Source: Trypanosoma brucei
Lineage: Eukaryota
Assembly: GCA_000002445.1 (NCBI GenBank)
Contig: AL929603.2
Coordinates: forward strand, 704,001-768,000
Length of the DNA: 64,000 nucleotides
Direction: 5' to 3'
Part shown: positions 20,456 through 46,896 of the stretch, in pieces
Position numbering within the stretch: position 1 is the first letter of the stretch
How the letters are laid out: every line of letters starts with the position of its first letter
Translations under genes and position numbers: made by a program
Notes under the pieces: generated by a model
What the model was told of the DNA's origin: nothing
The model's database searches: none
Seen by the model: the letters and a program-made list of their open reading frames with translations, nothing else

Positions 20456-21505
20456 ATGTCGACATCAAAATCTGAAAAAGGTGAAGAAAGTTTTGCAGAG
20501 GGAGAAAGTAATAACGAAAGTGATGATGACAGTGGTAATGATGGCGGGCATGAAGCAAATAATAATAATAATAATTGCAACAATGGAAGTGCTGAGGCCT
20601 GCACAAAAGAAGAGACACCGGTGGCACGGAACGGGAATAATAGCGAATCCCCGCCACAACAAGAAGAGAAACCCGCCACCCAGTCCAGTATTCTTGCGCT
20701 TTCTTGGTGTTGGGGAATGGTGGATCTTTTAAGGCTGAAAAATTTCACAGAGTTAACAGAGGTGAATGTTAACAACTGTGTTGACCTCGCAACTCTAATG
20801 GGACTGAAATATTGCAAGAAATTGAAAAGACTTAATCTCCACAAGTGTACAAAACTACAAGACCTGTCGGAAGCGGGGAGTTGCTGGAGGTTGGAGACTT
20901 TGATTGTGTGCGAATGCGAGCGACTCGAAAATTTGAGAGGGTTGGGGGGTCATCAGAGATTATCGTGCGTCAGAATTTCCCGCTGTGGGATGCTCGCCGA
21001 GGTAAACCTCGACGGTACCGTAAAGCTCAAAAAATTGTCCATTGACGAATGCTGGGCACTGAAAGAGGTTTATGTAACAAGATGTAAAACATTAGAATCG
21101 GTTGCACTTGTCGACTGCAGCCGACTAAAGAGTTTGTGTGGGCTCGTCCACCTGGTGTCTCTAAAATCACTTAATCTGGAGGGGTGCATAAGCATCGCGG
21201 AAATCGGGACCTTGAACACAAATAATAAGTTGGAAAGACTCAACCTTGGAAATTGCTTTATGTTGACAGATATGGAATTTCTGAATCACTGCATGAAGCT
21301 GAAGAGAGTGGTGGCTCTGGGAGTCCCCATAGATGAAGTGGTGAAAAGTAATTTAAGGAATAGGGGCGTCAGAGTTATTGATGAAAACGATGTGGATGAA
21401 TCATACAAGTGTTACCAACGACAATATCTGGAACGGGCATCCGTTGCGGAAAAGTCGTTACAGTGGGAGGAAAATGTTAAGGAAATTCTCTCGTACCCTC
21501 GTTAA
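20456..21505 (+). CDS. Leucine-rich repeat protein (trypanosome LRRP/ESAG8-like LRR class) with an acidic Asn-rich N-terminus
   Basis: About 23-25-residue leucine-rich repeats recur: LxxLxLxxCxxLxDLSxxxxCxxLExLxVxxCxxLExLRGL, with CxxLxxL cores. A polyY tract lies upstream at about 20385-20430. This is the last gene of the plus-strand array. Confidence 0.8.
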   Translation: MSTSKSEKGEESFAEGESNNESDDDSGNDGGHEANNNNNNCNNGSAEACTKEETPVARNGNNSESPPQQEEKPATQSSILALSWCWGMVDLLRLKNFTELTEVNVNNCVDLATLMGLKYCKKLKRLNLHKCTKLQDLSEAGSCWRLETLIVCECERLENLRGLGGHQRLSCVRISRCGMLAEVNLDGTVKLKKLSIDECWALKEVYVTRCKTLESVALVDCSRLKSLCGLVHLVSLKSLNLEGCISIAEIGTLNTNNKLERLNLGNCFMLTDMEFLNHCMKLKRVVALGVPIDEVVKSNLRNRGVRVIDENDVDESYKCYQRQYLERASVAEKSLQWEENVKEILSYPR

Positions 21506-24500
21506 TGTGCCATACAAAATTATAGGCTTCGCAAACTAGTGAACATTATACATTGAACATATGTGCATACATGACTGGTTTTGATTGCATTATGTCGCCA
21601 GCCTTCTAAAGCTGACAACGCTCAGCTTAGTTGACTTACGCTTTTTACATCCCAGCCCCTGCACGTGGTAGGGCTGGGGCACAAATGACACATAAAGAGA
21701 AAGAAGGAAACTAACGCAGAGAAATTGGAAATGAAGAGGGAGGAAGCCCTTCAGGTATTTGTCGTGTGGCATTTATGTTGCAGGTTTGCAAACTTTTTCT
21801 CTCAGTTACTTTACCACAAGGGAATGTAGAGACTGGATGAGGGAATTGTCCGTATGTCCGTCACGACAATGGCGGGGAGGAGGCGTGGGTGGGAAACGTA
21901 ACTCAGGGATGGCTGCGCGTCGCCACGAAAGTGAGACACGGCCTGCCAGAACCCTGAGCCAGGCGAGTAACCAAGCACGAGATCAGGTTAACGAAAACGG
22001 GAAGCAGGAGAACATTGCGAGCTCCTCTTTTTTTTTTCTTTTCCTCATGGTGTGGTGAGGCTGTGTCCCGTTTTAAACACCTAAAACACTTCCTGGCATC
22101 GCCGTCGAAGGGCAGACAGGAATAGACGCGAAATGTAACTGCACTTTTTCGCACTTGCCGGGGCGCGCCGCAGGGGGTGCACAAACAGCTGGGAGGGACA
22201 AGGCTGCCGGCACGCCCCTCATGTTTCATTGGGTTCCGACGCGACGCGGCAACGGGGACTCGCTTACAAACGGATTTGAAGAGAGGGGGACCACCCATAA
22301 GCGAATTTGTATTCGTTTTCCGGCGTGACGCTCCTCTTTTTCTTCCCCCACCTCGCCTGACGATACTGAACAAGCCGCTCACGGGCCTGGGCTCCTCAAC
22401 TTCCGCCGCGGTACGGGCACAGGCAATGGAGCCGTCTCCTCCTTGCCGTGCGGGTGAAAAGAGTTAGCCCCATCGTTCCATTCCGCACTTCGGCACCACC
22501 CTGCATTCAACCCCCAAGGAGAAATTGGCGCGCGGCTACCCACCCTCTGTCGTGGGATATCGCGGGTCCCTGCTCTGTCGGGCCCGTCAAAACGCCAAGA
22601 TCCCTTATTTGCGCGATTTCATCACCCATGCCGACGATCCTTGGGCTCAATCAAAAACCCAGCGCGGCAACAGCAACAAACGACCCACTGCGGCGCACAA
22701 ATTCAAATGAATCACGACTGCCATCCGACGGCATCTCATAAACCGGTATGCGCCGGGGCCCACAGCCGATCGCACACTTCTCTAAGTTATCACATCGTTC
22801 CAAACTCCTACCGGCAGCAAAAAGGCACGCCGAGGAAGCTTTTCTTTCCGCCCCCCCCCCCCCCCCCAACCGAAGGACTTACGAGTTTTCTTTAAGCAGG
22901 CAGCAGCGGCAATAAAGAGGGGGGCGATATATTCTGGGTCAAACAGACGCCGAGCAACATTCGCGGCGTCAGACCCAAAGCCAACGGAAGTAAAGAAGTT
23001 GCAACCGTAAAAACAGGAACACAAGCCAAAAATAAAAATGGTAAAGAAAAAAGGAAAAAAATGGGGACTGCGCGACTTAGCACGTGCACATTAACGACCG
23101 CTAAAGCAAAGAATACTCCGCACGTAATGCATTTACGTCGCTTAAACTTCATACGGTAGCAAGCACACGCCACAGCGAGCATAAATACATATCAGATTCA
23201 TCCATTTGCTTCCCATCGTATTGCAACAACGTTAGCAAACCTTTGCTTCATGCTGCAGCCCCTAATGATAAAGGTGACCATCCGATCCCACAACGCCAAC
23301 CACGAAGATCCAAAGCACTCAAGATCGTTGGAGTTATTCACAAAAACATGCTTGGAAGCGTTTCATCGCTCCTTCACACAGTCCCTAAAGGTTTAAAAAG
23401 CGTTACCGCGATAGCAAGGAGACCCAAGTGAGTCACCCGTGCCAAAATTTTGAAGATGCCAACAAACAAATATATATCATCCTAGTTACGGTTCAAATAT
23501 ATTGACCGGTGGGTGGACATGAACACACACATACACACATGCAGTTTGCACATGTCAGGAAATTGTGCAGCAACGTTCTGCCTGAGGAATCAAAAGGTGA
23601 AAACGGCTCCCAAAACTTGCAATAGTGGGCGCCTCAGCTGAGGAAATCTTCACAAAAATAAGGAAAGCAATGGTTAACCCTTCACTTCACTACCCGCAAT
23701 ACTCCACCGGAGGTGCCAATGACAGATGGCCACGCAACGGACTTCACCGCGGGGACTTGGCTCGACCAAACAGTTACCAATACTTGGGCGTGGACCGTTG
23801 AGTGCAATGACACGATAACCACACACCCCCGGCACAACAAAGGTGGAACCATGGATTCGCCTTCGGAACCTCAAGAAGATAGACAACCCGCAGCGTCACA
23901 TTTCATAGAATTCACGTTCAGCTGCGGCTCCTGCGCCAAAAAGAAACTGCACGTCCTTTCCTCCTTCCTTAACAGCCTCCCCCACCCGTCAGTCAGAAGT
24001 TATTGCTCGCATCTTACTACAGGTGCATACGGAAAACAAGCGCCACATTCCCCTACCCACAGCAAAGAGTTGGCGCTCGACCTACCATTCATACCCACAT
24101 TCTTGTTTTCCCCCTTATCTCCCCACATGGTTTCAACTCCCGTCAGCGGTTCACAAGTACCAGTATGCTTCCATAAGGCGAATATCTGACAAGAACAATT
24201 CTTTCCACGATGACCAATGTTTCCTGTGCGAATCACCGCAGTAAGGAAATGAAAGGGGATGAAAACCTTCACTTCCATTACCTTAAACAATGCAAATTTA
24301 CATTACACGACCTTTCTCCCACACATACACCATGTTTCGCAGCGCACAACAGCTATTCGCGAACCCTGAAGTCTGACTTTCCCTCAGAAACAGTCTGGTT
24401 GATAATGTCAAAGAAAACTCTCAAACATTAACCAAAGTCTTCGTAGCTTTTAAAAACATCAAGACCTGCATATCGGTTAATAGCCTACTCCTCTTGCAGA

Positions 24501-24537
24501 CTTGCTCGACCATTTGATTACATACCCCAAGTCCTCA
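21506..24537. promoter_or_regulatory. Convergent strand-switch region (likely Pol II termination zone) between the plus-strand and minus-strand gene arrays
   Basis: The last plus-strand CDS ends at 21505 and the first credible minus-strand CDS ends at 24538. The interval has no convincing ORF and contains a GC-rich island (about 22.0-22.9 kb) with a C17 tract. In trypanosomatids such convergent junctions are termination sites. Confidence 0.6.
22851..22867. repeat. C17 homopolymer (G17 on the minus strand) inside the convergent strand-switch region
   Basis: Read directly from the sequence. Flanked by GC-rich non-coding sequence. Confidence 0.95.
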
Positions 24538-24855
24538 TTATCGATTGACTCCCCGTTCCAACATATCAAGCAAAAGTTCCAAGTACCTCCTGTTTTGCCG
24601 TTGGAGCTGCTTCATTTGATTAGCAAATTCTACACGTATATCCTGCAGTTGTTTCTGCTGCTCATCTCTCAACTGCTCTGGTTGTGCAGTGGAAATAATA
24701 CCCAACTTTCCCAGCTGTTGGCGCATATCCTCCGCCGTGCGTTCATCGTCATTCAAAGATGGCACAAAGTCGCTCAGAATATCCCTAGATCCCTTCAGCG
24801 TCTCCATCGACGATTTGGATTGATCTGGGGTGGCATTTTCTGTCACTTGAAGCAT
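24538..24855 (-). CDS. Small hydrophilic coiled-coil protein, 105 aa, function unknown
   Basis: ORF with non-repetitive, heptad-like charged sequence (QLRDEQQKQLQDIRVEFANQMKQLQRQNRRYLELLLDMLE). A polyY tract and AG lie about 110 nt upstream on the minus strand. It is on the same strand as the downstream minus-strand array. No family recognised. Confidence 0.4.
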   Translation of the reverse strand: MLQVTENATPDQSKSSMETLKGSRDILSDFVPSLNDDERTAEDMRQQLGKLGIISTAQPEQLRDEQQKQLQDIRVEFANQMKQLQRQNRRYLELLLDMLERGVNR

Positions 24856-27722
24856 CGTTTAGTGGCGCTTTCGCCGCTTGAAAGCCAGTGTGGGAAAGTG
24901 CACCCTGGCCCGTGACATTCCCTTGGCTCATCATCAAAACGGAAAAAATAAAGTCGTGCAGCTGTCTTGCGTCTTCCGTGGCCACAATATTTGTCAGAGC
25001 CTCGACGCCAAGTCAATGTATAGGGAGTTAAGCTCTGTTTTGCCGGCCGACCGCCGATCAACATCCCCCACCAAATCCCGAAGTGGTTTTCTGTGTACCT
25101 CGCCTCCGCGTCCGCAACAAACGTTCCACATAGTCACTCACTTTAACCCTCTTTTTTTGGAGCACGTGCGTGCGGTGCGGCGAATGCAAATAGAAACCGG
25201 TAAATATGTTTACAGTCCAAAGAGAAACAACTCAGTGAAGAAATAGCAAGTTTTTCCGCAATGGTATCGCGATTGCGGCTCCCAATTTTCAACGTTCCTC
25301 AAACTACTGTTAGCCCAGCGACTCCCAACAAAAACAATTATATGGGACCAGATTAAACCGACTCTGACATTTTCACGACAGAACCACCCAGCTGAATCAC
25401 AACTCAGTGGAACCACCCGAACAACAAAAAGCACATGTACTCAAATGGGGGGGGGGTCCGAAGCCTTTCCCCAAACAAGCGCGGTATACCATTTCCTCGA
25501 CAAAATAACACTGACAAAGAAACCGCACACAAACACACACACCTCCCATAAATTTACCCCAGCACATTCACTCACAAAGGCATAACCCGCATGAAAATGC
25601 ATGCGCGTGCATGTGTTTGGCGGCATGTGCCATACGATGCCGCTTAGGAGTCGGGCGCAAAACAGGTTGTGTCTGCCGACATGGAAGAGGAAATTAGTGA
25701 TTTTAGATGCACAACCGAAACTGCGACCACAAAAGAAATGGTTCAAGGCAATGGACCGGGCGGGGGACGGGAACCCCAAGCAGACATAACAACACGGTGA
25801 GAAATAATGAACGAAACATTTACCAGCAGGGAATGGGCCGCGCAAGGCGAACCCACAAGCAGAGAAACACAAACACATTAGCATATATTTATGTCGGTAT
25901 GCTTCACCATACGGTTGTACAGTAACAGACGCCCCGTCGATAGACTCAACCGCTTTTTCTGCTCCTCTTTTTATTTACGGGAAAATGAGGAACTGAAATA
26001 ATAATGACAGACTACAGCGTGTGTTTCACGCCTTGCACACACACCTAATTCGTAGCGACAAACTTACATAGGTTATTACGAGAGTAATCCTCTCCATGTG
26101 GTGAAAAGGTGAAAGGGAAAAGTAGCGCCTAGATGAGTTTTGCGCAACGCCCTAACTTGAACTCAGCTGCTACTGTATTTTTTTATTCTTTTTATTTTTC
26201 AACTTTTAGGACATGCGAACGCAACTGCATTACGCGTTGGGAAATACACACAGCAACAAAGCACTTCGGGATCGTGCCAAAACAACCATGCATGTATGTA
26301 TGTATATTAATAAAACGCTTTTACTTGAAATGTAACCTCCCTAGAGCTCATTGGAAAATATAACGGCCCTTCCCGTTTACCCACCCTCCTCGCACAAAAA
26401 CATACATACGTTTATGCATATGTGGATACATTTATAAGATATGCAATGGAAAGGGTGGAAAGGGAACAACAAGACGGAATTAATGGTAGGAGTCGTCATC
26501 TTACGCCTTTTGTCAGCCCTATCCCATGGCACACGCGCACGCACAGGCACTTGCACTTGCACTTGCACTAAACACACTCCGAAAGCACAAGTCAGCGATT
26601 TGCGTGTAAAAACAAAAACACGAGCAGACTCTACGGATGTAAAACAAAAAAAGCAAGTGGTTTCCATTAAACATAAGGCACGGCAAACAGCACAGATATT
26701 TTTCCACATGTATAACGTCATATTGTCTTACATTTTCCATGATGAGTATCTCACCACTGGAGTCACACAAATGTTCCTCTCATGTATTCGAATACCGACC
26801 TTCAGTACCGTGCCCACAAGTATGCACTCGTGAATTTCAACATCAAACATAATAAAGGCAGTCCATCACTTAAATATAAATGTGTGATAAGTTCGTTTCG
26901 GAGTTCCCGCGCCTTTTTTCTCTCTTCTTTTTCTTGTCCTATTATTGCCTTGTTATTATCATTACTATTGTTGTTGTTATTGCTTTTGTAAGCCCTTTCG
27001 ACTAGTGTGCCAAACTTTCGCAATTCGGAAAGATCCGCCCCCGCTCAGCCCACACATACGCACTTCTCTGTTTTAACAGCACGGAGAGAGACGGATGTGT
27101 TTTCATGCGATAAATGATACACGACTTCGTTTGTTTTGCTTCAGCCATATATGCTGCAAACCCAATCTCACATCTCCTTTATACGGCAAACTTATACGAA
27201 AATGACACATAAAACCAAATAGTAGAGATACCTTTTTTTAAAAAAAAAATTAGAAAAATAGAATTCAGCAAGTTGCCCTGAAAGGAAAGAAGATGTGCAC
27301 CGCCCATAAACCACATACACACATACATGTGTGTGTGTATGTGTGTACATATGTGCAATGAGAAAACGAAAGAATTAATTAACTACATCACTTGAAGAAA
27401 AGGAAAAATACAAGAGAAATTCATGGGAAGAATTTTAAAAATAACCAATAGGAATCATCATGCTCGCCACCAGCATCAGCCACAAATAAATAAATGTGTG
27501 TAAAAGAGAGAGAGAAAAAAAAAAGAGAAGAGCCTTCAAATGGCGGTAAGAGTGAAGTGAATAACAATAATAATAATAATAATAATGATAATAATAATAA
27601 TATTTTCTGTGGTGATAACAATAAAACACAATAAGTAGAAAGTGTAGGGTTGGGGAGAAACAGCTGAGCCGGGGCACAGGAAAAGGAAATAAAAATAAAG
27701 GGAATGAGATGTTGTACACAAA

Positions 27723-28211
27723 CTATTTGGATTTCTTCAGACGACTGAATTCCACAGTGAATTGCGATACGGATACCGCATTTCCCGATTTTTCATCATA
27801 TTCCATCCAATCTGTGCTCAAATCCGCTGCCTCAAACGTCGCTCCCTCCGCTTCCACCACCCACTTGTCATCAATCTCCAATTCCGTAGGCGTCGCTCCC
27901 CGCACTTCAATTATCAGTATTGAATTCCCATCGCCTTTTCCATTATCCTCTTCAGGGCGGTACGTGCCGTAACTCTCGGGGTCAATATGTGCAGTGATGA
28001 GAGTTTTGCATGAAGCGCATTTGAAGGCGGCGTTACGCGTCCCGCCACCGCCGCTGTCACATTCCTCGCTCTCATCAACATAAACAAAATTAGGACTGAA
28101 TTCCCTGCAGGCATCACATGTTACTTTCAAACCCCAGTTGCGAGGACGCATTGGGCGAATACAAACAACACCTTCCGTTTCAGCGGACACCGAAAGGCGG
28201 TAAAGTGGCAT
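27723..28211 (-). CDS. CZIB: CXXC-motif zinc-binding protein (DUF866/UPF0587, human C1orf123/CZIB family)
   Basis: WGLKVTCDACRE...FKCASCKTL pairs of CxxC and the EVRG...E...F...WxEYDEK blocks align with the human CZIB pattern (WYLKMKCGNCGE...KCKLCARE...ECRGLEP...DWTDYDEK). 162 aa is the typical family length. Confidence 0.8.
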   Translation of the reverse strand: MPLYRLSVSAETEGVVCIRPMRPRNWGLKVTCDACREFSPNFVYVDESEECDSGGGGTRNAAFKCASCKTLITAHIDPESYGTYRPEEDNGKGDGNSILIIEVRGATPTELEIDDKWVVEAEGATFEAADLSTDWMEYDEKSGNAVSVSQFTVEFSRLKKSK

Positions 28212-33756: not shown

Positions 33757-36132
33757 CTACCACAGCCGCACTCTTGTTTTCTTATGTAATTGTTCAGTAT
33801 CTTCATCATCACTCGCATCGGAGCCTTCATATTCCTCTCCATCAGTGCGAGATCCTCCATCAGACTCACCTGCATCAGTCGCACGATTTATAACCGCCCT
33901 GAAAAATGAAGCAAATGTGTTCATACAACCATTACGTTTGGGCTCCCGCTCACGCCGACGCCGCTTCTTACGATCACCACCACTGAAAGCGCTAGGATGA
34001 AATAATGAAGTTCGACTGTCAGCGTCATCATCATCATCATCATCAACATCATCAACATCATCGTCATTCTCATCGCGGCAAACGGCAGCATTTCCCTCCC
34101 CATTATTTGTTTCATTACTTGGACGCACCTTCCTTTTATTGGCTTCAACAACAACAGCTGCATCCGCCACAGTTCCATCTCGCACCGCAACTGCAGCACA
34201 TTCATCCTTCAATTGTACAACGAGAGCACCGTTGCCAAGTTCCTTCGGCGCATTAGCAGTTTGAATATCAGAAGATGATGGCAGTTTCTTATCACTGCAC
34301 ACGACTGCACTTCCCTCATTTCCGCTGGTCGGGACGCTGATGCAAATGTTTTCAACATGCTGCGGAGGCATCGAAACATTTTGGTTAGCCATAACACCCG
34401 TTACACCATTAGCAGCAACAAAAGTAGTAGTGGTAGGAGCTGTTGTTGCTGTTGTAGTGTCGTCACCAACACGAGTGCTATCATAACGTGTTAAAGGGAG
34501 AACTGTAGTCCCAATCATACGCATCACTGGAGATGGTGCAGCATTTACTTGAGGATATGTTGCACGACAGTCGGGAGCACCACCAGTTTGGCAACTTGAC
34601 CTTATGGATGACAGGCGGCATTCCGCAATTGAAGCTGCGGCCGTCGTTGCCGATGGGGTGGACACCGCCCAGCAACTCGACGCCCTGTCGTTTGCAGAAG
34701 CCGGCCCCTCCTGCTGTTGTTGATGTTGATGTGGTGATAATACCGTGCCGATATCGATGCCAGCAGACCAGGAACGGAGAGTTTCGTGAAGCTGGTCTGC
34801 AGAAGCCTGAACCTGAACAATGGCCTCCAGCCAACCCTTCACGGTGGATAATTCCGTGTCTATCTGTCGTCGCCTTGCTTCATATTCCTCCATCGTGGGA
34901 TCGTAACTGTCCATAGCAGCCAAACGCTCATCGAGGCGTCCCGCTTCCTCTACACGGTTGGAACCGAGGCGGGCGATACGAGTTCTCATATCGTTCAGTC
35001 GTTCCCGTGCGTCGTTACACAACCCTTGCAAAGCAACCAATGCTCGGTTTGCCGTTACATTTTCCTTTAGTCCACGCAATAAATCGCCACAACTGGCGCC
35101 CACAACCTCCTCCCACTGTTGCCGCAACCGAAGTCCACACACATGAACAGTAACCTGAAGGTCATCAACAGGATGCCCGCCAAGCGACAACTGCTCCCGT
35201 TGGGGTGGTACTACAAAAGGGAACCCGAGGGACTGGCCATTGTTATGAGAAGGAGATTTGGTCTGAATATCCCCCAGAGCAGCGCACACTTGATCTTGTT
35301 CCTCCCGAAGTTTCTTGAAGCTCTGAGCAAATGTTCCCACATGCGACAGAATTCCCTTGCATTCACTCAAATCAACGTCCACCCGCGAACGGCCTCGCTG
35401 CCCCTTGACTGAACCGACAGGACCATTTGGCACCATGTGCTGCAGCGGTTGCTGCGGAGATGTAAATAAAAAGCTGTCCGTTAAGGAAGCAGCTGATGTT
35501 GCCTGAAATGAAGCGGCAGCACATTCAATAGCCTTTTGAAGCTCATCCCAACGCCGAAGTATGGCCTCACCTTCTTCGAGCCGCTGTTTAACTTGCATCC
35601 GAGCCACTGCGTAACGCCCCAACGCAAATTCAATTATGGAAACGGCTTCCTTCTCCTCAGGCCGGATCGAGCGGTCAGACATAAATTTTTGCATTTCAGC
35701 CACACAACCTGGCAATGCGGGGTTGAAGTCGGCAGTAGGCGCCAACGTTGCCGAATTGTTGGATAAACGAGAAACGGAAACATCCTCCTTCGAGGCCTCT
35801 ACGTGACTGTTTACCACATTATTGGAAATGGCAACACTGTTGAGAGCGGAGGACGCGACATAACTACTGAAAATATCAAAAGGGTTGTTCGTGGCATTGC
35901 AACCGCTAGCAGCTGTCACCACCTGCACATCATTATTAACAGTTCCGGTTCCGCTGCATTGCGTGGATAAGCAGCCGGGTTGCGGTATGGTGGCGTTGGT
36001 GTTGGTGTTGGTGTTGGAATGGTTCAATGGTGTAAAGTGAGTTGACATGGTAGAAGAAACCGCATCACTTTTAACACCCGCTAAACCATTGGAATTCCGC
36101 GCTGTGACCTGCGATGGCAGGAAGGAGGCCAT
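33757..36132 (-). CDS. Hypothetical protein, 791 aa. Low-complexity Ser/Thr/Asn-rich N-terminal half, coiled-coil middle, and an acidic poly-Asp segment followed by a basic tail
   Basis: Long ORF with a polyY tract and AG immediately upstream on the minus strand. In-frame (CAT)n and (GGTGTT)n microsatellites encode poly-Asp and NTNT runs. No family recognised. Confidence 0.65.
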   Translation of the reverse strand: MASFLPSQVTARNSNGLAGVKSDAVSSTMSTHFTPLNHSNTNTNTNATIPQPGCLSTQCSGTGTVNNDVQVVTAASGCNATNNPFDIFSSYVASSALNSVAISNNVVNSHVEASKEDVSVSRLSNNSATLAPTADFNPALPGCVAEMQKFMSDRSIRPEEKEAVSIIEFALGRYAVARMQVKQRLEEGEAILRRWDELQKAIECAAASFQATSAASLTDSFLFTSPQQPLQHMVPNGPVGSVKGQRGRSRVDVDLSECKGILSHVGTFAQSFKKLREEQDQVCAALGDIQTKSPSHNNGQSLGFPFVVPPQREQLSLGGHPVDDLQVTVHVCGLRLRQQWEEVVGASCGDLLRGLKENVTANRALVALQGLCNDARERLNDMRTRIARLGSNRVEEAGRLDERLAAMDSYDPTMEEYEARRRQIDTELSTVKGWLEAIVQVQASADQLHETLRSWSAGIDIGTVLSPHQHQQQQEGPASANDRASSCWAVSTPSATTAAASIAECRLSSIRSSCQTGGAPDCRATYPQVNAAPSPVMRMIGTTVLPLTRYDSTRVGDDTTTATTAPTTTTFVAANGVTGVMANQNVSMPPQHVENICISVPTSGNEGSAVVCSDKKLPSSSDIQTANAPKELGNGALVVQLKDECAAVAVRDGTVADAAVVVEANKRKVRPSNETNNGEGNAAVCRDENDDDVDDVDDDDDDDADSRTSLFHPSAFSGGDRKKRRRREREPKRNGCMNTFASFFRAVINRATDAGESDGGSRTDGEEYEGSDASDDEDTEQLHKKTRVRLW

Positions 36133-38057
36133 TTTGGAAATGGAAACGTGTGTAATAAGGAGAGGGAAAAGATAACTAAAAGAATTAATAATAATAATAA
36201 TAATATATATATATATATATATATTTATTTATAGAAGAAGATGGGGGGAAGAAAGAAAAAAAGAGATGAATTGATTGCAGAGACTGAGTGGAAGGAACAC
36301 AAACGCAAATGCACATACTTGTTAGCGATGGGGGAGAAGAAAAAAAAAAGGTGCTAAAGCACCAGAGGAAAAGAAGAAGGAAAATTAAAAAAAAAAAAAT
36401 GAAACAACAAAACAGGGGAGATGTAAAATTTGACCAAGCAATAAAACAATCAAACAAAAAGAAGGAAAAAAAAGATACCTCAGGCAGAAAATGACTCAAA
36501 GGAGTGAACCAAACACATTTGTTATCATCATCCTCCTCTTCGTACATTTTTTTTTGCTTTGCTTTGCTTTTTTTTTTTTGCTTTGCTTTGCGCATGTTTG
36601 TGTGTCTTCTTATCCCTCAGTGCAGGAAGCGGCCAAACTCATCAGTTATCATTCACAAAAAAAAAAAAATGCGGTAATTTGTCCCGTCATTTTCGTTTAG
36701 TACTGTAAAGTAAAGGGACGCCTCACGATAATAAGAAAATGATGAAACTGTAGTTTTTGTTTCGTTATCTTTTTTTTTCTTTTCTTTTTTACCTTTGCCT
36801 CTTTTAAGTGAGGTAAAGGTAAAAAAGAAAAAAAAGAAAAAAGAAAAAAAATTAGTTCACGGGAAAACAACTTCACAACTGATATGCAAGCATGCAAAAG
36901 TAAGCAATAAATTGTAAGAGGCAGAAAAAAAAAAACAAAAAAAAACAAAAAAAAAAGAAAAAAAAGAAGTTTGAAAGGTATTCAAAACAAAACAAAACAA
37001 AAAAATTAAAAAGAATCAAAGCAACTTCACAAAGAAAAAAAAGAAAAAGAAAAAGAGGGTACACAGAAATGAATCAATGTCACAACGAGAGAAATAAATA
37101 AAAGAGGAGATATTTGCCACGCAGAATGGAGGGAGGTACACACTGAAGGGGAAAATGTAAATAAATATTATGAAAGTATTGAAACCGCTTGACGGAATAA
37201 ACAATGATAACAATAATAAAGGGAAATAAAAGGGAAATAAAAGGTGCCTCAAATTACCGTAATGATACCGAAGCAGAGGTGTACACGCCGCCATCAAACA
37301 AATGATGGCAACGTCAATTTAAAAAATATAAATATATACACAAAAAAAGATGTGAAAAAAAAAAATCACGGCGAAAGAGATCTCAGAAAAAATTAACAAA
37401 GGATGAAAAGGACATATGTGTGTGTGAGTGTGTGAGTGTGTGAGAGAGAGTCGCCTCATACAAAATGCTCCTTTTTTTTTTTGTTTTGTTTGAGCCATCA
37501 GCACCTTTCTTTTTTTTTTTTAATCCATCATTATTGTTAATAATCCTCATCTCAACATTTTCTCTTGTATTTTCTTTTTTTTTCTTTTCCACTTCATTTC
37601 ATCATCACGGCTCATCCCCATTTCAAACACCGTCATTTCAACCTTTCGTTTCCCTTTCAAACACATAAACACACGTAAGAAAAAAAGAAAGAAAAGAAAA
37701 ACAAAGCTCCAGAAGGGGGGAGGAAAAAAAAAAAGATGTATAAATTTAAATATAACCAAATATTCGTATAATTTTGTGTGTTTTTGTTTCTTTTTTTTTC
37801 TTTTAATTTTTCTCTTTTAGTGTTTGTTACTCCCGTAACCTCCATTCATTCATTCATTCATTCATGCAACATTCTCTCTTGTATTTTCTTTTATTTTCTC
37901 TCTTACATCATTTCTCTTGTCCGTATGTGACTTTGCGCGTGTGAGGTTTCTTTTTTTTTTTTTTTCCTCTCTCTCTCCACCTTCATTTGAACCTCCTCAA
38001 ACGCAAAAAAAAAAAAAGAAAAAAATGTGTGCTTGTATATATACGTTTAAACATACG

Positions 38058-38090
<33 letters not shown>

Positions 38091-38119
38091 ATATAATATT
38101 AATATAATATAATATATAT
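38058..38119. repeat. (TA)n microsatellite degenerating into (TATAA/TAATA)n
   Basis: Read directly from the sequence. Confidence 0.9.
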
Positions 38120-40879
38120 GTGTACGTATATATATATAAATATATGTCTGTGTGTGTTTGTATGTGTTTATGTAAAAGGCGTAATTCACTGGGCAGCAGT
38201 TCCTTCCAACAGAGTTGAAATAATTGTAATGACTGCATGACACTCAGCCATTTATTTATTTATTTATCTAAAATATTGACGGTTTCGATGCATCCGCAAC
38301 GACAGGCGGTTATGTGTGCTCTCTCATTTTCCTTTCAGTTCCTTCACACATTTGCGTCTTCATAAGTACATTTATACTCAATAGTCTCATTATTTCCAAC
38401 AATGATATAATAATAACAAATTTATGTTGTTAAGAATGATATCCAAAACATTTCTTTTTATCATTGTTATTATTTGCATATTTCTTTTTTTTTTTCATTC
38501 TAACCTGTTCATATCTTACAACTGCTCCGTGTAATCCTCTCCATTAAATATCGTCATTTTGTTTTTCTTTTTTTTTTTCTCTACCTTTTTTTTTCTTTTT
38601 TTTTCTTGAACTCTTTCCTCTTCAGCTTGAGTGGAAAAAAAAAAACACAAAAACACACACACACACACAAAACAAAAAAAAATTTGGAGGAAGCGGGAAC
38701 AGAGAAAGAAAGAAAGAAAAAAAACAATAATAATAACAATAACAATAACAACAGCAGGAGCGCGCGCCTTTGCTTCATTCCTTTCTCTCTTTTTTTTTTT
38801 CCGTTTCACTCATTCATTTTCTTTACTTTTCTTTTTCTTTTTCTTTTCAATAATCATAATCATAGCAGAAACGAAAAGGAAGTGAAATAACGTGAAGCAA
38901 AAAAAGAAAGTGAATACCATTGAGATACTGAAGTGTATAAGTAAAGTATATATAAATATAAATAATATATAAACCAAAATGCATGTATATTTATTTATAA
39001 TTTCATGTGGCCGCGGAAGCTCACCGGCGCGCATACTCTAAAAAGAAAAAAAAGAAGAAAAACATAAGAAGTATAATATTAATAATAATAATAATAGTAC
39101 GATATAATAAAATACCCTTTCAGTATCTGTCATCATTATTTGAAAAAAAAAACAAGAAAAGAAAAGAAAGGGGGGAAATTACGAAGTTTGTCGTTTTTTT
39201 TTCCCTTTTCGAAGGGGGGGGGGGTGTTGCTGGTTTACATTTCATTTTTTATTTTTTATTATTGTTATTTTTCCTCTACACCAAAAAAAAAAAAAGAAGG
39301 ACGATGGACAGCACAACGATGATATTTAAAAAAAAAAAGAACAATGATGGTACAATAATAACCGAACAAAACGAAATAAAACAAAAAAAAAGAAAAGAAA
39401 CAAATGAAGCGGAGGAAATTTCTCACCTCCCATAAAAACTTCTTTCAGTTGATATAAATAAATATTTAAATATTGCATAACGTTCATACGAGTATATAAA
39501 AATAATAATAATAATAACAGACAACAAAGAGCGTGCACCCAAAAGAAGGAGGGATTTAAAAAAAAAGAGAAAAAAAGAGAGAAAAAAAAACGTTCGTATA
39601 TAATTATTGGCGTTATAATATAAAACTATATAATTTCTTATTTGAAACAAAAAAAGAAAAACAATCAAGGATTTCATAGTTTACAAATATTTGTACGTGA
39701 ACAATAATACATTCGCGGACATGAACACAGATATTCATTGAAGAATAGAAGCAGGAAAAAAAAAAAAGAAGAGCGTACATGTAACAAATAAAAATAAAAA
39801 CAATTATTCATGAGCAAATGATACAAACAAACATGTACAGATACACACACGTATATATGCAAATGTACATGTCATTTTTTCTCTCTTCTGTGGGAGCTGC
39901 TTGAACGGAAATCTTGACAAAACAACAACAATAATAATAATAATAATAAAAGCAACAATAAGAAGGGGAAAAGGGAGGGGGAAAGAAAAAGAAAAGAAAA
40001 GAAATTTGATAGCGATTTGTAAATAATCGAATCAAATAAAATTGAACAAATATTTCATGCAAACATGCATATATAAATATATAAATATATGTGTGTGTAT
40101 TTGTCCCTTTTTTCTTTTTCTTTTCTCTGTTCTCCCTCTCATTTGCCCTCATAATTCATAGCAGCATCCGTGTCACCGAGTTTATCTGTGAAGAATAGTT
40201 ACCATATAATTAATATCACAATGATGATGGTAATAATAATAATAATAATGAGCGAATAATGAAAAACACAAAAAAACACAAAAAAACAAAAACAGACACA
40301 CAGTAGTAGTAGTAATAATAATAATAATAATAAAAGTGGCATATAAAGACGAGGAGGAGGGGGGCGGGGAGGAGACAATTTAACAAAAAGAAAAAAGAAA
40401 AAATCATTTAATTTTCATTTTTATTACACAATGCACTTGTCATCTCCCCTCATCTTTCTGTTACCGCCCCTATGATTATTATTATCATTATTATTATTAT
40501 TATTATTGCTAGTGCTGTTATCATCATAATCATGACCTTTCGCGGATATCACCGCGTGTCATTTCTGCCATTCATCCGATAAATCCCGTCGATGCCTTTT
40601 TTTTTTTGTTTTTTCCCTCTTTTTTTTTTTATTTCATTCTTTTTCCTCCCTCACTTATAAATAAATAAACAAGTAAATAATAAATGATTTCTCATAGTTT
40701 TCTTTTTACGGTTTCAGCTTCAGGAGTCATGGCAACAGCATTACGGCGGATGAAAGCAGGGGAGAGGAAAATCAAAATATTTCTCTTTTTTTTTTTTAAG
40801 AAAAAAAAAGAACAAGAAAATACAATCTTGTGAGTTTGAAAAGCCGTAAATATATATATATATATATTTATTTATTTAT

Positions 40880-40912
40880 AATATATTTATAATATATTTA
40901 TAATATATTTAT
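40880..40912. repeat. 11-bp tandem repeat (aatatatttat) x 3, following a (TA)n and (TTTA)n run
   Basis: Read directly from the sequence. Confidence 0.9.
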
Positions 40913-42337
40913 AATGGATAGAGGGAATTGACAATGCAACACAATAACAGCACAAAAAAAAGAAAACGAAAAAAAAAAAAGAAAAGACAAGACAAGACAA
41001 GTTGCCCCTCCCCCCTCCTCCAACAACAAAAAAAAAAGAAAAAACTCTTTGATTACCCGTCATCCTCTGTAAAGAGTCATTTAATTCTACTTTCACTTTT
41101 TTTTTCTTTTTTTCTTTTTTTTTTTTTTTAGCCTCTCATTTCCTCTCGTTTCATTTCATAATTTTGAAACAAAATATTCATCCTCTCTTTTCTTTTCTTT
41201 TCTTTTCTTTCTTTTTTTTCTTTTTTTTTTTTTGATACTCGACAAAGTGTAGAAATTCATCACATGCATCCAAAACACCACACGAAACGTATATCTCAAA
41301 AGAAAAAAAAAAAAGAAAAGACAAACACAAACACAAATTTATTCATCAACGCCATCATATTCATTCGCTATCCCAATCTCATCAATTCCCTTAACTTTTC
41401 CCACCAGTTCCCTTTTTTTTTCTTTTTTTTTCTTTTTTTTTCTTTTTTTTTCTTTTCTTTTCTCTTTTCATACGTGAGTACATTTCTTCTATTCGTACAT
41501 CCATCCTTATCTCCCCACAACGGCATACACCCCCGTTAAGATCTAATGCAAAAACAAAACAAAACGAAACAAAACACACACGAGAGGGAAAAAAAAAGAT
41601 AAAAAAAGATAAAAAAAAAAGAAAAAAAAAGATTCCCATTTCTGCTTTTTATCAAACCCCCACACACACACAAACACAAACACAAACAAACACACATGAA
41701 ATATACGAATTATATACATATATATATATATATATATATGTATTCGTACACTTGACATGCATATATTTACGATAATCACACACGTGCCAAATGCAAATGT
41801 GACAAATTTACATATAAATATTTATAAATAAATAAACAAAAATTAATAATGCACATAATACAAAGGTGGATACGACATGTGCGTGTGTGCTTGCACTTTT
41901 TTATTTATTTTTTTATTTTTTTCTCTCCCTCCTCCCTCCCCCCCCCCCGTGCGGGTAAAAAAAAAAATTATATTGTTCAATCGTATTCAAACCTTAACAC
42001 TTTGCTTTTCTTTTATCTCCTTCTCTCTTTCTTTCTTTCTTTTTTTTTTCGTTTTCCTTTACTCCTCGGTAAACTTTTTATTTTACATTCTTGTCATCGT
42101 TATATTACATTATATTACATTATATTTATTTATTGTTAGTTTTAAGTTATTTATTATAAGAGATGAACTTATTTCTTTCTTTTCTTTTCTTTTAAAATCT
42201 TTTTTCGAATTTCAGTTCTTTACGTTAGGAAATGGGAAACACCCACCTGCCCCAAAGTACGAAAACAAAAATAAAGAAAAAGAAAAAGAAAGAAAAGTAA
42301 AGAAGACAATGAAAAATAACGACAATAATATTATATT

Positions 42338-42391
42338 TATTTTTATTTTTATTTTTATTTTTATTTTTATTTTTATTTTTATTTTTATTTT
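42338..42391. repeat. (ATTTTT)9 hexanucleotide microsatellite
   Basis: Perfect period-6 repeat read directly from the sequence. Confidence 0.95.
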
Positions 42392-44488
42392 TACTATTGT
42401 TGTTAAAAAAGAAAAAAAAACGCTGCGCGTGGTGGAATTTCTACTGTGAAGTGAAAGAAACAAAAACACACACACAACAGCAGAGCTAAATTTCTTTTAT
42501 GAAATATATATATATTTATTTATTTATTTATTTATTTAAAAAAAAAAGCAATTCGCATCAGTGTCTTTGCGTACGTATACGCCACCGTAATGAAACTTCA
42601 TGGAACAAACAAACAAACACAAAAAACACAAAAAAGAAAAATGTGGAACTGCTTTTTTTTTTATCTATTCGTTTCTCTTTTCTTTTTAAAAAAAAAAATC
42701 CTTTTTCTTTTTTTAGGTTCTTTCAGTCTTCAATATTATTATTATTATTATTGTCTGTTGTGTTTTTTTTTTTTATGGACGTGTGAGTGGAAGAAGCAAC
42801 GGCAGCGAGTTCCATGACATAATGTCATTCAAACGATAATACAAAAACAAAACAAAAAACGAAAGGAAATGAAATGAAATGAATAGAAAACATTGGAATA
42901 GAAATGGACAGCAGCAATTTGTATATAAAATAAAAAAGATATGATATGCTTTGTCTCCTGTAAACCAACACAATAACAAATACAACAGACACAGTAACCA
43001 TACAATGATGGTACAAAAAAAAAAAAGAAAAAAGAAAAAAGAAAAAAGAAAGAGAATATAGTCAGAAACACGCATACAAGCATACATATATTTCACGTGT
43101 AAATATATAGAGGTATATATAAATATAAAAGTAAATATATATATATATATATATAATATATATATATATAAATAAATATATGCAAATATATATAAATATA
43201 TATATAGAGAGAGATTAGTGGTGCATTGATATAACGTTTCCCATCATGGTAACATCATATAAAGGCTCCACATAATCAAGTAGCAAAGTCTGTATGAAAG
43301 TGTCAGGGGGATTTGATAAAGCAAGGGAAAAGTACGGTGAAAGCCAAAACTGGGGGGGAAAAAGAAAGAGGGAGTAAGAGATCTTTTTTTTTGTGTTTTT
43401 TTTTTTTTTGAGAGCAGTAAAACACAAACAAAAACACACAAAAAAACAAAAACAAGAACAAAAACAAAAGGGTGGAAAAACAAATATTTTTCGTTTTCTT
43501 TACTTTCCTTTTTTTTTTCTTTTTCAAATGAAAAGACATCATCAGTTCCCCTTGAGTACTTTTAATGTCCTTCATTTATTCTCCATTTATTCATCATGCA
43601 GGTGCCTATTACCCGCTGTTGTTTTTTTTTTTCACTTCTTCCCCTTTTTGTTGTTGTTATTTGTTTGTTTGTTTGTTTTTCTCTCATTTATCTCATGCAT
43701 ATTAACTAATTCAAACACCACTAAACCATTCTCACTAATTCATCCATCCACAAAAAAAAAAAAAAAATTACTCATTTACTAAATCACTATAATCATTTCC
43801 ATTCACTCAATTCATTCACGCACTAAACCATTTTACACAACAGTTCAACAACATAATTCATTCACGTACTCTTTTTGGCTAAGCCCCTTTTTCTCTAGCC
43901 TTATACCCACATTTCCTTTTCTTTTTTTTTCTTTGCAAAACAAAAACAAAACAAACACGCACAAACACGCACAAACAAACATATAAATAAATACAAAACA
44001 AAATAAAACAAAATAAAATAGATAAAAAGTAACCTTCTTCTCTTCTCTTTTCTTATTTTCTTTTTTTTTCTTTTTTTTTTTTTGTTTCAATCGCCAATGT
44101 GTGGGGAACAATTTCTTCTACTTTACCTCAGAGAGGTAGACACAAATAAATAAATAAAACAAAAGGGCGGAGGCACTTCTCGTGTGTTCATTTAATGCCG
44201 TCTTTTTTTTTTTTGGTTTTTCATACGTGTTTGTTCGTTTGCGTATTTGTGCGTTTTATTTTGTTTTCACCTACTTATTTATTTATTTGTTTATTTATTT
44301 ATGCGTTTTCCTTTCTTTGATTTTACACACACTCTGGTGTTGACAACCAAGTCAAAAGTATGAGAAATTCTCTTTGCTTTGTTTCCCTCTTCCTTCTTCC
44401 TTCAAGAAAATAATAATAATTAATAATAATAATAATAAACCATACGCAAGAAACGTACCAAAATTTATTATTTTCTCTTTCTTTTCTC

Positions 44489-44519
<31 letters not shown>

Positions 44520-45077
44520 GAAGGAAGGAAGGAAGGAAGAGCCGATGAGGAAACAAAAAACAAAAAACAAAAACAAAAACAAAACTAAAACTAAAACTCG
44601 AAAAAGTGGGAAAAGTGGCAAAACAAAAACAGGAAGGGAAAGGGAAACTTGCATGCCATTCATTGACGACGACTCTATCATCATAGGACTGATATGTTGT
44701 CACTACTATCGGATTTTCTCTTCATTTCTCTTGTATTTTCTTCAATTTTGTTTGAAATTCTCCTTTTTCTCACCACCAGTTTTGATCCAAATAATCCAAC
44801 CTACTCATAACGATGACAACAACAATATAAATAATAACAATAATACGTTCTTCCTCTTCTCCGGTTGTTTAGTTGACAGTTTCACCTTTGCTTGTTTCTT
44901 CATTTTTTTTTTTCTTCTTCTTCATTTTTCTTTCTTTTTTTTTTCTTTTTCTCAACATCCAATTGATTTCTCTCATCATTCTCACGTCTACGAAAAAAAA
45001 AAAAATCACTACCAACACAATCAAAACAATCAAAACAAAAAAAAAGGGGGAAAAAACAACCATAACAACAGATAAAA

Positions 45078-45112
45078 GGGAATTAAAAAGGGAATTAAAA
45101 AGGAATTAAAAA
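45078..45112. repeat. 12-bp tandem repeat (gggaattaaaaa) x about 3
   Basis: Read directly: gggaattaaaaa gggaattaaaaa ggaattaaaaa. Confidence 0.9.
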
Positions 45113-46865
45113 GGGAAAAGTAAGTGGAGGGAAAAGAAATGAGAGGAAACGCCACTACAATACAAATCTCTTCTTTTATATACAAATATATTATTATTAT
45201 TATTATTGTTATTATTATCATCATTGTTGCTATTTTTTTTTTTCCTCTCTCACATTCTCTTTTGCCTTTTTCCTACACGTAATGTCATGCTACGCCATTA
45301 AAACACTGCTAAAATGGAGATATGAATTGTCATTTCCCATTATTCCAATTTTTCTTTTCTTTCTTTTTTCTTTAAAAATAATAATAATAATAAAAACAAT
45401 TTTTCTTCTTCTTTACCACTCTTCTCATACAGTACAAAGCAATAGTATGCAACGATGATAATAACAATAACAAGATGCTAATAACAATACTAACAGTAAG
45501 ATAATAATAACAAAAATAATAATAATAATAAGATGCTAATAATAATAACCGTGACGGAACGTGATGCGGTACGACATGACATGACGAAGAGGCAAGTGAG
45601 AAGAAAAAAAAAAGAAGGAAAAAAAAGGGAAAAAAAGAAAAGAAAAGAAAAATGTCATTTCACTTTCTTTTTATCTTTTTTTTTCCTTTTTTTTTTTCTC
45701 TTCCTGTTTCCTTCTTGTTTTTCTTTCTTTCTTCTGATCTTCTCCCCTCTCCCATCCGCCCCTCACACAAAAACACAAACATATGCGTATAACCTTCTCT
45801 CCATTCTTCCTCTTTTTTTTTCTTTTTTTTTCCCCCTTTTGTTTCACTACTCATCCTCTTTCCCATTTATATATATATTTTTAGATATATATTATCCCTT
45901 TTTTCTTCGCCTTTTTATTTTTTTTTTCCTTTCCATCATCATTTGGTTGAAGCGGTACCTCTCATTTACACACATTTTCTTTCACTTTTCTATATTTGTG
46001 TAGTTATTATTATCATAGTAAACAACAATAATAATAATAACAATAATAATAACAATAAATTGGGAAACAAAACAAAAAACACACACACATTTCCCATCAT
46101 CCATCTCTCTCAACTCAAATTTCATCTTTCATTGTTGTCTTCGTTGTTTCCCCTCCCCCCCTCCCTTTTTTTTTGTTTTGTTTTGTTTTCTTTTCTTTTC
46201 ATCGCTCTTTTAAATATAAAACACATATATAACAAAAAAAAAAAGGTAAGATAAAAAAAAAAAAATCAAATTGCTTCCCTTTACAGTGGTGTGTAAAATC
46301 CGCTAAACTTTTTTTTTCTCAATAACACGACGCACATACAAAAGAAGAAAGAAATGAAAAAAAGAAAAAAAAGAAAAAACAGGGCAAACAAACGAACCAT
46401 TTTTCTTTCTGACCTTGTTTGCGCCTTCGTTTGTTTGTTTTTGCTCATCTCATTTCCTTTCATCTCATTTCTTTTTTTTTTTCATTTCTTTCTTCTTTTA
46501 CTATTATTATTTTTTTTTTCTTTCTCCACCTTTCCTTGGTTTCTTTTCCTATATATTTCTTTTTCTTTTTCCATTTTCCTTCTTTCATGAGCACACACAC
46601 ATTCACACATACATATGCACACTATTATATTACTGCTTCCGCTCCATTAGCAAACTCAAAAAACAAAAAAAACAAAAAAAGACAGTATAAAAACACTTCG
46701 CATACACCCATTCAAACAAATTACTCCCTTTTTTTCTTTTTTTTTCCTTTTTTTCTTTTTTTGTTTTCTTTTCCTTTTTTTTTTTGTTGTTGTTGTTATG
46801 GTGGAGGTTGTGGTTGTTGTGGTTTTCATTTTATTTTTATTTGTTTTCTTTATATATATATATAT

Positions 46866-46896
<31 letters not shown>

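Follow-up and report, generated by a model that had tools for sequence, protein, structure and literature searches.

The 64-kb stretch of DNA analysed here (the window) comprises positions 704,001 to 768,000 of chromosome 1 of Trypanosoma brucei TREU927, and window numbering corresponds to the Tb927_01_v4 coordinate minus 704,000. The positions of the ATG, the stop codon, and the poly(A) sites of Tb927.1.3320, as well as that of the splice site of Tb927.1.3390, are all consistent with this single offset. The interval under study, 21506 to 24537, is the exact gap between a plus-strand coding sequence (20456 to 21505) and a minus-strand ORF (24855 to 24538). A first-pass annotation, made from the sequence alone, had placed the meeting point of a plus-strand and a minus-strand gene array here, and the genes were indeed found to lie tail to tail, with the plus-strand coding sequence ending at 21505 and facing minus-strand features that end at 24538, 25270, and 27723. 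The reading of this gap as a convergent strand-switch region also agreed with the transcript map of Kolev 2010, in which the two units end at Tb927.1.3320 and Tb927.1.3390.

Tb927.1.3320 (20456 to 21505, plus strand) encodes a 349-aa leucine-rich-repeat protein, with Pfam LRR matches and a codon score of 0.20 to 0.21 per codon. It is the last gene of a polycistronic unit that runs from Tb927.1.2950 (Kolev 2010, Table S14), and its splice site has been mapped to 723733, giving a 5′UTR of 723 nt (Kolev 2010). The poly(A) sites of this gene, 725707 and 725721 on the chromosome (Kolev 2010, Table S5) and 21707 and 21721 in the window, lie 202 and 216 nt past the stop codon and delimit a 3′UTR at 21506 to 21721 (plus strand). 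Within this 3′UTR, folding predicted a hairpin at 21650 to 21679 (−19.9 kcal/mol, z −2.1). About 300 nt downstream of the poly(A) sites there is a plus-strand polypyrimidine tract at 22020 to 22048, and copies related to GCTCCTCTTTTT are found at 22330 and 25961 (direct-repeat family D1). Because polyadenylation in trypanosomes is coupled to a downstream polypyrimidine tract, the tract at 22020 to 22048 is likely to be the signal that places the Tb927.1.3320 poly(A) sites.

On the opposite strand, the polycistronic unit runs from Tb927.1.3560 to Tb927.1.3390 (Kolev 2010, Table S14). Tb927.1.3390 (27723 to 28211, minus strand), encoding a CXXC zinc-binding protein (DUF866; Pfam PF05907, E = 1.9e-38) with orthologs in seven other trypanosome species, is the last conserved gene of this unit, and the processed transcript mapped farthest downstream in the unit, beyond this gene, is Tb1.NT.35 (25270 to 27231, minus strand), which spans 731231 to 729270 on the chromosome and has an abundance of 0.34 RNA per cell (Kolev 2010, Table S7). 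The right border of the gap is formed by a 105-aa orphan ORF (24538 to 24855, minus strand), an extended version of Tb927.1.3360, which is annotated as 62 aa and "hypothetical unlikely." The codon score of the 105-aa ORF (0.26 per codon) was the highest among 242 open frames, and the ORF differs from T. b. gambiense by 1 substitution in 318 bp; no homologs were found beyond the T. brucei group. Together with five other ORFs (Tb927.1.3330-3380), it is listed with "no detectable transcript" in a survey of procyclic forms only (Kolev 2010, Table S2), and four of the six annotated ORFs between Tb927.1.3320 and Tb927.1.3390 fall inside 21506 to 24537. Among the entries listed for this locus in Kolev 2010, again from procyclic forms only, there are no splice or poly(A) sites between 725,721 and 729,654, and none have been mapped there near a minus-strand polypyrimidine tract recognized from the sequence at 23028 to 23065 (purine-rich on the plus strand). 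On these literature data, no trans-spliced or polyadenylated mRNA comes from the gap in procyclic forms. An inverted duplication was considered and rejected, as the two flanking 349-aa ORFs are unrelated (the LRR protein versus the bromodomain factor BDF6) and a long inverted repeat is absent.

The most prominent feature of the gap is its base composition. A GC-rich stretch of about 900 bp had been described at 22.0 to 22.9 kb, and this was confirmed: a non-coding island at 21871 to 22870 has the highest GC content of any kilobase in the window (0.58), and the GC maxima of the 64 kb at three scales all fall here (500 bp, 22149 to 22648, 0.61; 1 kb, 0.58; 1.2 kb, 21809 to 23008, 0.567). The island exceeds every coding region in GC (the runner-up kilobase elsewhere reaches 0.567), and ordinary intergenic DNA in the window has a GC content of 0.32 to 0.47. 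In 200-bp windows, GC was 0.52 to 0.63 at about 21.8 to 23.0 kb versus 0.40 to 0.47 in the flanks, so that the flanks, called AT-rich in the first-pass annotation, are so relative to the island but are not extreme in absolute terms.

The cumulative G−C curve of the 64-kb window reaches its global maximum at 22289, within the island, and its global minimum at 60,776, in a divergent region. GC skew is +0.12 for 21506 to 22289 and flips there to −0.21. From 22290 to 24537 the plus strand is C- and A-rich (G/T-rich on the minus strand; GC skew −0.21, AT skew +0.16), which is the strand composition of the minus-strand unit. Between strains, the island diverges by 1.5 to 1.6%, like other intergenic DNA, while coding regions diverge by 0.1 to 0.9%. 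Judged from these alignments, sequence constraint on the island is undetectable, and it appears to evolve neutrally, at the intergenic rate.

The island is not a protein gene, a tRNA, an snRNA, another known RNA gene, or a repeat. ARAGORN found no tRNA genes in the whole window, in line with the earlier search by eye, and no Rfam family matched the window at gathering thresholds; at E values up to 10 there were only chance-level Rfam matches, the best of them scoring 21.7 bits against a 60-bit cut-off. A tRNA or snRNA gene that might explain the GC island, envisaged in the first-pass annotation as a competing explanation, was not found by ARAGORN or Rfam, nor were other known RNA genes. A hidden protein gene was likewise rejected, on negative outcomes of codon scans of six frames, a protein search, and a test of open-frame length. 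Log-odds scores of island ORFs were −0.10 to +0.12 per codon (most within ±0.07) compared to 0.19 to 0.27 in genes, and the 159-aa minus-strand ORF at 21903 to 22382, previously dismissed as not protein-like, scored −0.045 per codon compared to 0.19 to 0.22 for real genes, which bears out the dismissal. A stop-free frame of 186 codons is ordinary for this composition, being reached by 19% of shuffles. When the six frames were concatenated and compared with 5.8 billion proteins, no homolog appeared among the best 8000 candidates, a search in which weak matches may be missed, and tblastn and tblastx of the island against syntenic loci and the rest of the window gave no match. The island is present as a single copy in the 64-kb window. 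With no codon bias, no homolog, and a divergence of 1.5 to 1.6%, it resembles neither a coding gene nor a recent pseudogene.

The region is already among the convergent sites reported for chromosome 1, in Tschudi 2012 (as CTU2) and in Reynolds 2016. The identification with CTU2 follows from the coordinates of Kolev 2010, which put the window at 704 to 768 kb; the same coordinates exclude the strong siRNA locus CTU1 ("cSSR 1.4") at 636 kb. For CTU2, 652 small-RNA reads from the top strand and 697 from the bottom strand were reported for 721 to 736 kb, a 15-kb bin that includes expressed genes (Tschudi 2012). CTU2 is a weak siRNA producer compared to CTU1 at 636 to 642 kb (198 versus 4152 normalised reads; Tschudi 2012). 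Its dcl2−/− ratio is listed as 0.159, whereas dividing the reads by library size gives 1.59; reads from dcl2−/− show a strand bias (876 versus 190; Tschudi 2012). In an H3.V knockout, small RNAs from 723,975 to 731,389 (Lister 427 coordinates) increased from 6.7 to 19.7 RPM (p = 0.0033), and 21- to 27-nt reads also rose (p = 0.0007) (Reynolds 2016). The earlier proposal that convergent transcription at this site would be a source of siRNAs therefore stood in part: modest amounts of small RNA come from both strands and go up on loss of H3.V, but the resolution is coarse, and siRNAs cannot be placed on the island itself because the bins are 7 to 15 kb wide and include expressed genes.

We consider it fairly probable that the interval is the core of a known Pol II convergent strand-switch (termination) region, at about 725.5 to 728.5 kb, and that the GC island is a non-genic spacer within it. 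The locus shares with other T. brucei convergent strand-switch regions, a class marked by H3.V, H4.V, and base J, the converging units, the gap without processed transcripts, and the small RNAs from both strands that increase on H3.V loss, and there is no difference in kind; the published lists are silent on the sequence composition of the site. From what is known of kinetoplastid biology, polymerases arriving from either side would pass the last poly(A) sites, enter chromatin carrying H3.V, H4.V, and base J, slow down, and stop, and a short overlap of the two read-through transcripts could form dsRNA that is converted to siRNAs via DCL2. Since the locus has already been published as a convergent strand-switch region, it adds nothing new under that heading, and the finding is largely ordinary. 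The spacer reading does, however, leave the GC maximum at the convergence point without an account, given the GC content of other intergenic DNA (0.32 to 0.47).

One account of this GC maximum would be that the island is the remnant of a decayed gene or mobile element at a synteny breakpoint, its coding-like GC being a fossil with no present function. Its GC content (0.57 to 0.61) is as high as in coding regions or higher, its neutral evolution is consistent with such an origin, and synteny breaks at this site, where BDF6 and the CXXC gene are retained in all species examined, unlike the genes on the opposite side. No orthologs of Tb927.1.3310 or Tb927.1.3320 were found within 10 kb of the CXXC gene in other species, and Tb927.1.3310 is confined to the T. 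brucei group. In T. vivax an ingi-like retrotransposon is found at the equivalent position, and in T. cruzi an RHS array, so the type of site is one shared with DIRE/ingi/RHS relics at synteny breaks, but here no similarity was detectable. When the ingi-like ORFs of T. vivax, T. cruzi RHS, and all ORFs of at least 80 aa from four syntenic loci served as tblastn queries, only chance matches were obtained (for ingi and RHS, no match had an E value under 0.005, itself at chance level), and tblastx gave none; no ingi, DIRE, or RHS relic was recognized in these searches, the island is single copy in the window, and a retroelement relic was rejected on this evidence. Conservation of the island in other kinetoplastids, suggested earlier as a check, was not seen either: in blastn comparisons of 18 to 31 kb with the loci of T. 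vivax, T. theileri, T. congolense, and T. cruzi, matches were confined to simple repeats and to the coding regions of the BDF6, CXXC, and UTP23-like genes. As codon bias is absent in all frames, open frames do not exceed the lengths seen in shuffled sequence, and neither the T. vivax reverse transcriptase/endonuclease, T. cruzi RHS, and other syntenic ORFs, nor the best 8000 candidates from the 5.8 billion proteins, nor the rest of the window provided a match, a relic of a gene, as put forward in the first-pass annotation, or of a mobile element is an unlikely identity for the island.

The island is also bounded by unusual G/C tracts. At its right edge, the 17-nt poly-C reported earlier was located at 22851 to 22867 on the plus strand (G17 on the minus strand); no other G or C homopolymer in the window is as long, and the number of such runs expected from base or dinucleotide composition is about 3e-7. 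Across four T. brucei-group assemblies, this run measures 17 (the present assembly), 14, 11, and 12, and since it is present yet shorter in the three others, it is real and length-variable. The C17/G17 run counts among the five strict G-quadruplex motifs that the window contains. At the left edge, a patch of G runs on the plus strand (GGCGGGGAGGAGGCGTGGGTGGG...; 21874 to 21908) forms a relaxed G-quadruplex motif, one of only two plus-strand motifs of G3+ runs with loops of up to 12 nt in the 64-kb window, and it is invariant in the four assemblies. Farther right, a plus-strand G10 run at 25447 to 25456 lies in the inverse orientation to the C17 run (TTCCG-C17 versus G10-TCCGAA) and has lengths of 10, 7, 7, and 12 across the four assemblies. 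Just right of the C17 run, an imperfect palindrome at 22935 to 22977 could form a two-part hairpin (GGGUC...GACGCCG...CGGCGUC...GACCC; plus strand −20.2 kcal/mol, z −2.8; minus strand −22.7 kcal/mol, z −2.5), chosen post hoc from 100 window-strand tests and invariant in the four assemblies.

These tracts raise the idea that the island and its flanking G tracts are a sequence-encoded element for termination or base J entry, which would either attract JBP2 and H3.V chromatin or stall Pol II directly. The position of the island at the GC-skew flip fits the termination element suggested earlier, as far as the DNA sequence goes, and the GC maximum and the skew flip lie between the G patch (21874 to 21908) and the G17 run (22851 to 22867), each of which has its G residues on the strand that is non-template for the unit arriving at it. 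Base J "entry" sites in the convergent regions of Leishmania adjoin G-rich, strand-biased, quadruplex-capable sequence (Genest et al. 2015, PMC4344527), a setting that the present site resembles in its G/C strand bias and its quadruplex-capable G runs within a convergent region; Leishmania is, however, a different genus, the likeness is one of DNA sequence, and quadruplex potential alone was insufficient for J entry according to the same study. In T. brucei nucleosomes, G·C runs of more than 7 bp are strikingly absent (PMC5359979), and the C17/G17 run and the G patch, both G-quadruplex capable, would probably exclude nucleosomes and are candidates for a role in termination. The C run stays long in all four assemblies, but its length varies from 11 to 17, and the island as a whole changes at the neutral substitution rate. 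A C10 run is likewise found in the convergent region of T. theileri, about 0.9 kb past the skew flip, but the convergence point there is AT-rich. As the proposal rests on one locus and two tracts, and the window has further G/C runs in either orientation, including outside strand-switch regions, we regard such an element as distinctly unlikely.

A cryptic, weak bidirectional Pol II start inside the convergent zone, marked by the G17 and G10 runs and with divergent transcripts rather than read-through feeding the siRNAs, is very improbable. G runs are reportedly found at T. brucei transcription start regions, and the two runs are mutually inverted, 2.6 kb apart, with G on the outward-pointing strand; the minus strand of 22.3 to 24.5 kb is, in addition, G/T-rich. 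However, no unit begins here in the PTU table of Kolev 2010, which is based on a 5′-triphosphate library, the ORFs between or beyond the runs have no detected processed transcripts (Kolev 2010), and the skew profile matches simple convergence. A structured non-coding RNA of an undescribed family, the remaining identity proposed earlier, is scarcely credible in spite of the high GC content and two local hairpins at z of about −2 to −3, both marginal and invariant, given that there was no Rfam family match, mean folding z was about −0.2 (−0.16 and −0.19, over 50 sliding windows on both strands, with extremes as expected by chance from 100 tests), the sequence is unconstrained between strains, and no transcript was detected (Kolev 2010).

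Clusters of tRNA and snRNA genes at trypanosomatid strand-switch regions occupy the same kind of unit boundary, but the present window holds no tRNA or Rfam RNA. To our knowledge, chromatin marks (H3.V, H4.V, base J) are so far the sole explanation for where Pol II stops in trypanosomes, and we know of no sequence signal. There is a slim chance that a DNA determinant underlies Pol II termination at T. brucei convergent regions, consisting of a GC core at the meeting point of the skews, bracketed by nucleosome-refractory, quadruplex-prone sense-strand G tracts that nucleate base J/H3.V or stall the polymerase; if so, this locus would be a clean example, and the C17 length polymorphism (11 to 17) would constitute a natural allelic series. 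What is worth carrying forward is the coincidence, within 1 kb, of the skew flip, the GC maximum of the 64-kb window, and two G tracts. A single case is an anecdote, but if the coincidence recurs genome-wide, it would provide a testable sequence hypothesis for termination and base J placement.

The segment 21506-24537 is exactly the gap between two converging ORFs, since the plus-strand ORF at 20456-21505, encoding the LRR protein Tb927.1.3320, ends at 21505 and the facing minus-strand 105-aa ORF (24855-24538) ends at 24538. Because the splice and poly(A) sites of Kolev 2010 share one offset, the window corresponds to TREU927 chromosome 1 704,001-768,000 (window position equals Tb927_01_v4 minus 704,000, which fits all Kolev 2010 sites checked). 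For Tb927.1.3320, a splice site at 723,733 and a 5'UTR of 723 nt give an ATG at 724,456, and polyadenylation maps to 725,707 and 725,721, 202 and 216 nt past the stop; for Tb927.1.3390, the CXXC-motif protein, the splice site lies at 732,219 and the ATG 8 nt further on (PMC2936537). The CXXC gene (28211-27723, minus strand, 99% identity to the T. b. gambiense protein) is adjoined by BDF6-like and UTP23-like genes, BDF6 being Tb927.1.3400 (PMC8559703). Across 13 kb the window shares 97% identity with T. b. gambiense chromosome 1, and it matches a T. equiperdum OVI contig at 99.5% identity.

The region is an already known Pol II convergent termination zone. Kolev 2010 Table S14 gives Tb927.1.3320 as the last gene of the plus unit and Tb927.1.3390 as that of the minus unit (PMC2936537), in agreement with the convergence described in the first-pass annotation. 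All six ORFs annotated between them are listed in Table S2 as lacking a detectable transcript (PMC2936537), i.e., Tb927.1.3330 (21837-22058), Tb927.1.3340 (22707-22895, with the C17 run read as poly-proline), Tb927.1.3350 (23719-24189), Tb927.1.3360 (24538-24726), Tb927.1.3370, and Tb927.1.3380. Processed RNA from the minus strand ends with Tb1.NT.35, a novel transcript running from 27231 to 25270 at 0.34 RNA per cell (PMC2936537). Since the Table S2 ORFs lack a detectable transcript and Tb1.NT.35 ends at 25,270, the Kolev 2010 table entries for this locus record no processed RNA for procyclic forms between 21,721 and 25,270.

Convergent transcription had also been expected to yield siRNAs, and this expectation is supported at a modest level and coarse resolution. 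In Tschudi 2012 the site appears under the name CTU2 (721-736 kb); small-RNA reads there number 652 from the top strand and 697 from the bottom, a modest output compared to CTU1 at 636 kb (PMC3447711). Reynolds 2016 includes a convergent region of chromosome 1 at 723,975-731,389 (Lister 427 coordinates), where small RNAs rose from 6.7 to 19.7 RPM in the H3.V knockout (P = 0.0033; P = 0.0007 for 21-27 nt reads alone) (PMC4721609). These counts are binned over 7-15 kb including expressed genes and are not placed on the island itself. Coordinate mapping ruled out that the window holds the strong 636-kb siRNA locus ("cSSR 1.4"). In the CTU table of Tschudi 2012, the dcl2-/- normalised values for CTU2-5 are tenfold below reads divided by library size (CTU2: 1066/3.40 M = 313, given as 31.3), while CTU1 is consistent; given this mismatch, the DCL2 dependence of CTU2, stated as 0.159 of wild type, may really be 1.59. 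The CTU2 dcl2-/- reads are also heavily strand-biased (876 top versus 190 bottom).

Between about 21.8 and 23.0 kb, GC content is 0.52-0.63 in 200-bp windows, compared to 0.40-0.47 on either side. At every scale tested, GC content over the full 64 kb is highest here, with peaks at 22149-22648 (500 bp, 0.61), 21871-22870 (1 kb, 0.58), and 21809-23008 (1.2 kb, 0.567), all above every coding region in the window; the island noted by eye at about 22.0-22.9 kb was thereby recovered. So was its poly-C tract: C17 at 22851-22867 is the longest G/C homopolymer of the window, far beyond chance, and measures 17, 14, 11, and 12 nt across four assemblies. A G10 run at 25447-25456 (10, 7, 7, and 12 nt) is followed by TCCGAA and resembles the reverse complement of TTCCG plus C17 (22846-22867), 2.6 kb away. 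The island diverges from T. b. gambiense and from a second assembly at 1.5-1.6% of sites, compared to 1.75% for other intergenic DNA and 0.1-0.9% for coding regions.

The best reading of the island is a non-genic spacer where the two units meet. That it is instead the relic of a decayed gene or element, as had been suggested, is unlikely: composition and position are the positive evidence found for it, while codon bias and homologs are absent. Codon log-odds, trained on window genes, stayed close to zero over the island in each of the six frames (0.19-0.22 per codon for real genes kept out of training), in line with the earlier view that it holds no protein-like ORF, and 19% of dinucleotide shuffles equalled its 186-codon open frame. 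A six-frame concatenated query against 5.8 billion proteins gave no homolog at E ≤ 0.01 among the matches listed, and the island is single-copy within the window. Synteny of BDF6 and CXXC extends to T. congolense, T. vivax, T. theileri, and T. cruzi; within 10 kb downstream of CXXC, none of these species showed the 105-aa ORF, the LRR protein, Tb927.1.3310, or the myotubularin gene. With these neighbors not found in four species, the junction is a synteny breakpoint, and there is therefore no outgroup sequence with which to align the island. Downstream of CXXC, the syntenic position is taken in T. vivax by an ingi-like non-LTR retrotransposon (RVT_1 plus endonuclease; L005 14775-16871) and in T. 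cruzi by a tandem RHS array (L009 11727-20489), so the junction looks like a site of repeated insertion or a synteny breakpoint; the island resembles neither these nor other syntenic ORFs. Unlike the T. brucei island, the point of convergence in T. theileri is AT-rich, but it likewise carries a C run (C10, ~0.9 kb past its skew flip).

Composition and position, again the positive evidence found, would also suit a termination or base-J entry element encoded in the sequence itself, a live but improbable alternative. The GC maximum is flanked by the region's only quadruplex-capable tracts, a plus-strand G patch (21874-21908) and the minus-strand G17, each on the sense strand of the unit arriving there. 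Leishmania base J entry sites adjoin G-rich, strand-biased, quadruplex-capable sequence, although this property alone is not sufficient (PMC4344527), and T. brucei nucleosomes show a striking lack of G.C runs >7 bp (PMC5359979). A structured ncRNA was not borne out, with no Rfam match at gathering thresholds (chance-level matches only at E up to 10 over 21.3-24.9 kb), mean folding z of -0.16 and -0.19 in 120-nt sliding windows on the two strands, extremes (-3.3 and -2.8) in the Tb927.1.3320 3'UTR, and a palindrome at 22935-22977 (about -2.7) within the chance range for 100 tests; ARAGORN found no tRNA in the window, as by eye.

The 105-aa ORF (24538-24855, minus strand) is a longer form of Tb927.1.3360, whose 62-aa annotation reads "hypothetical unlikely", and may be a real orphan gene. 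Its codon-usage score (0.26 per codon, 27.5 bits) is the best per codon among 242 open frames of at least 80 codons, it differs from T. b. gambiense by 1 substitution in 318 bp, and the T. equiperdum OVI annotation gives it at 105 aa. Kolev 2010 detected no transcript (PMC2936537), no homologs were found outside the T. brucei group, and assembly L002 has an in-frame 87-bp gap within it. Elsewhere, 36000-50000 (Tb927_01 740-754 kb) is 14 kb of 25-32% GC, crowded with low-complexity A/T-rich repeats and with no convincing ORFs, over which Kolev 2010 reports the novel transcript Tb1.NT.36 (4.65 kb) and the Tb927.1.3470 3'UTR (4.3-5.5 kb) (PMC2936537). A divergent strand-switch region (57322-64000), starting past the Tb927.1.3560 splice site (761,322), contains a C10 run (59919-59928).

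Polyadenylation is coupled to downstream polypyrimidine tracts, and the plus-strand tract at 22020-22048, ~300 nt past the Tb927.1.3320 poly(A) sites, likely positions them. The motif GCTCCTCTTTTT occurs three times on the plus strand (22021-22036, 22330-22345, and 25961-25976), the third within the minus-strand transcript Tb1.NT.35. Along the full 64 kb, cumulative G-C reaches its highest value at 22,289, within the GC core, and its lowest at 60,776, past Tb927.1.3560 in the divergent region. Peaking at convergence and bottoming at divergence, skew follows transcription direction, and the compositional domains of the two units therefore meet in the island. GC skew is +0.12 left of the flip (21506-22289) and -0.21 to its right (22290-24537), where the minus strand is G/T-rich. 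The pattern suggests that, on an evolutionary timescale, the plus unit stops no more than ~0.6 kb from its final poly(A) site, and that minus-strand transcription runs several kb beyond Tb927.1.3390.
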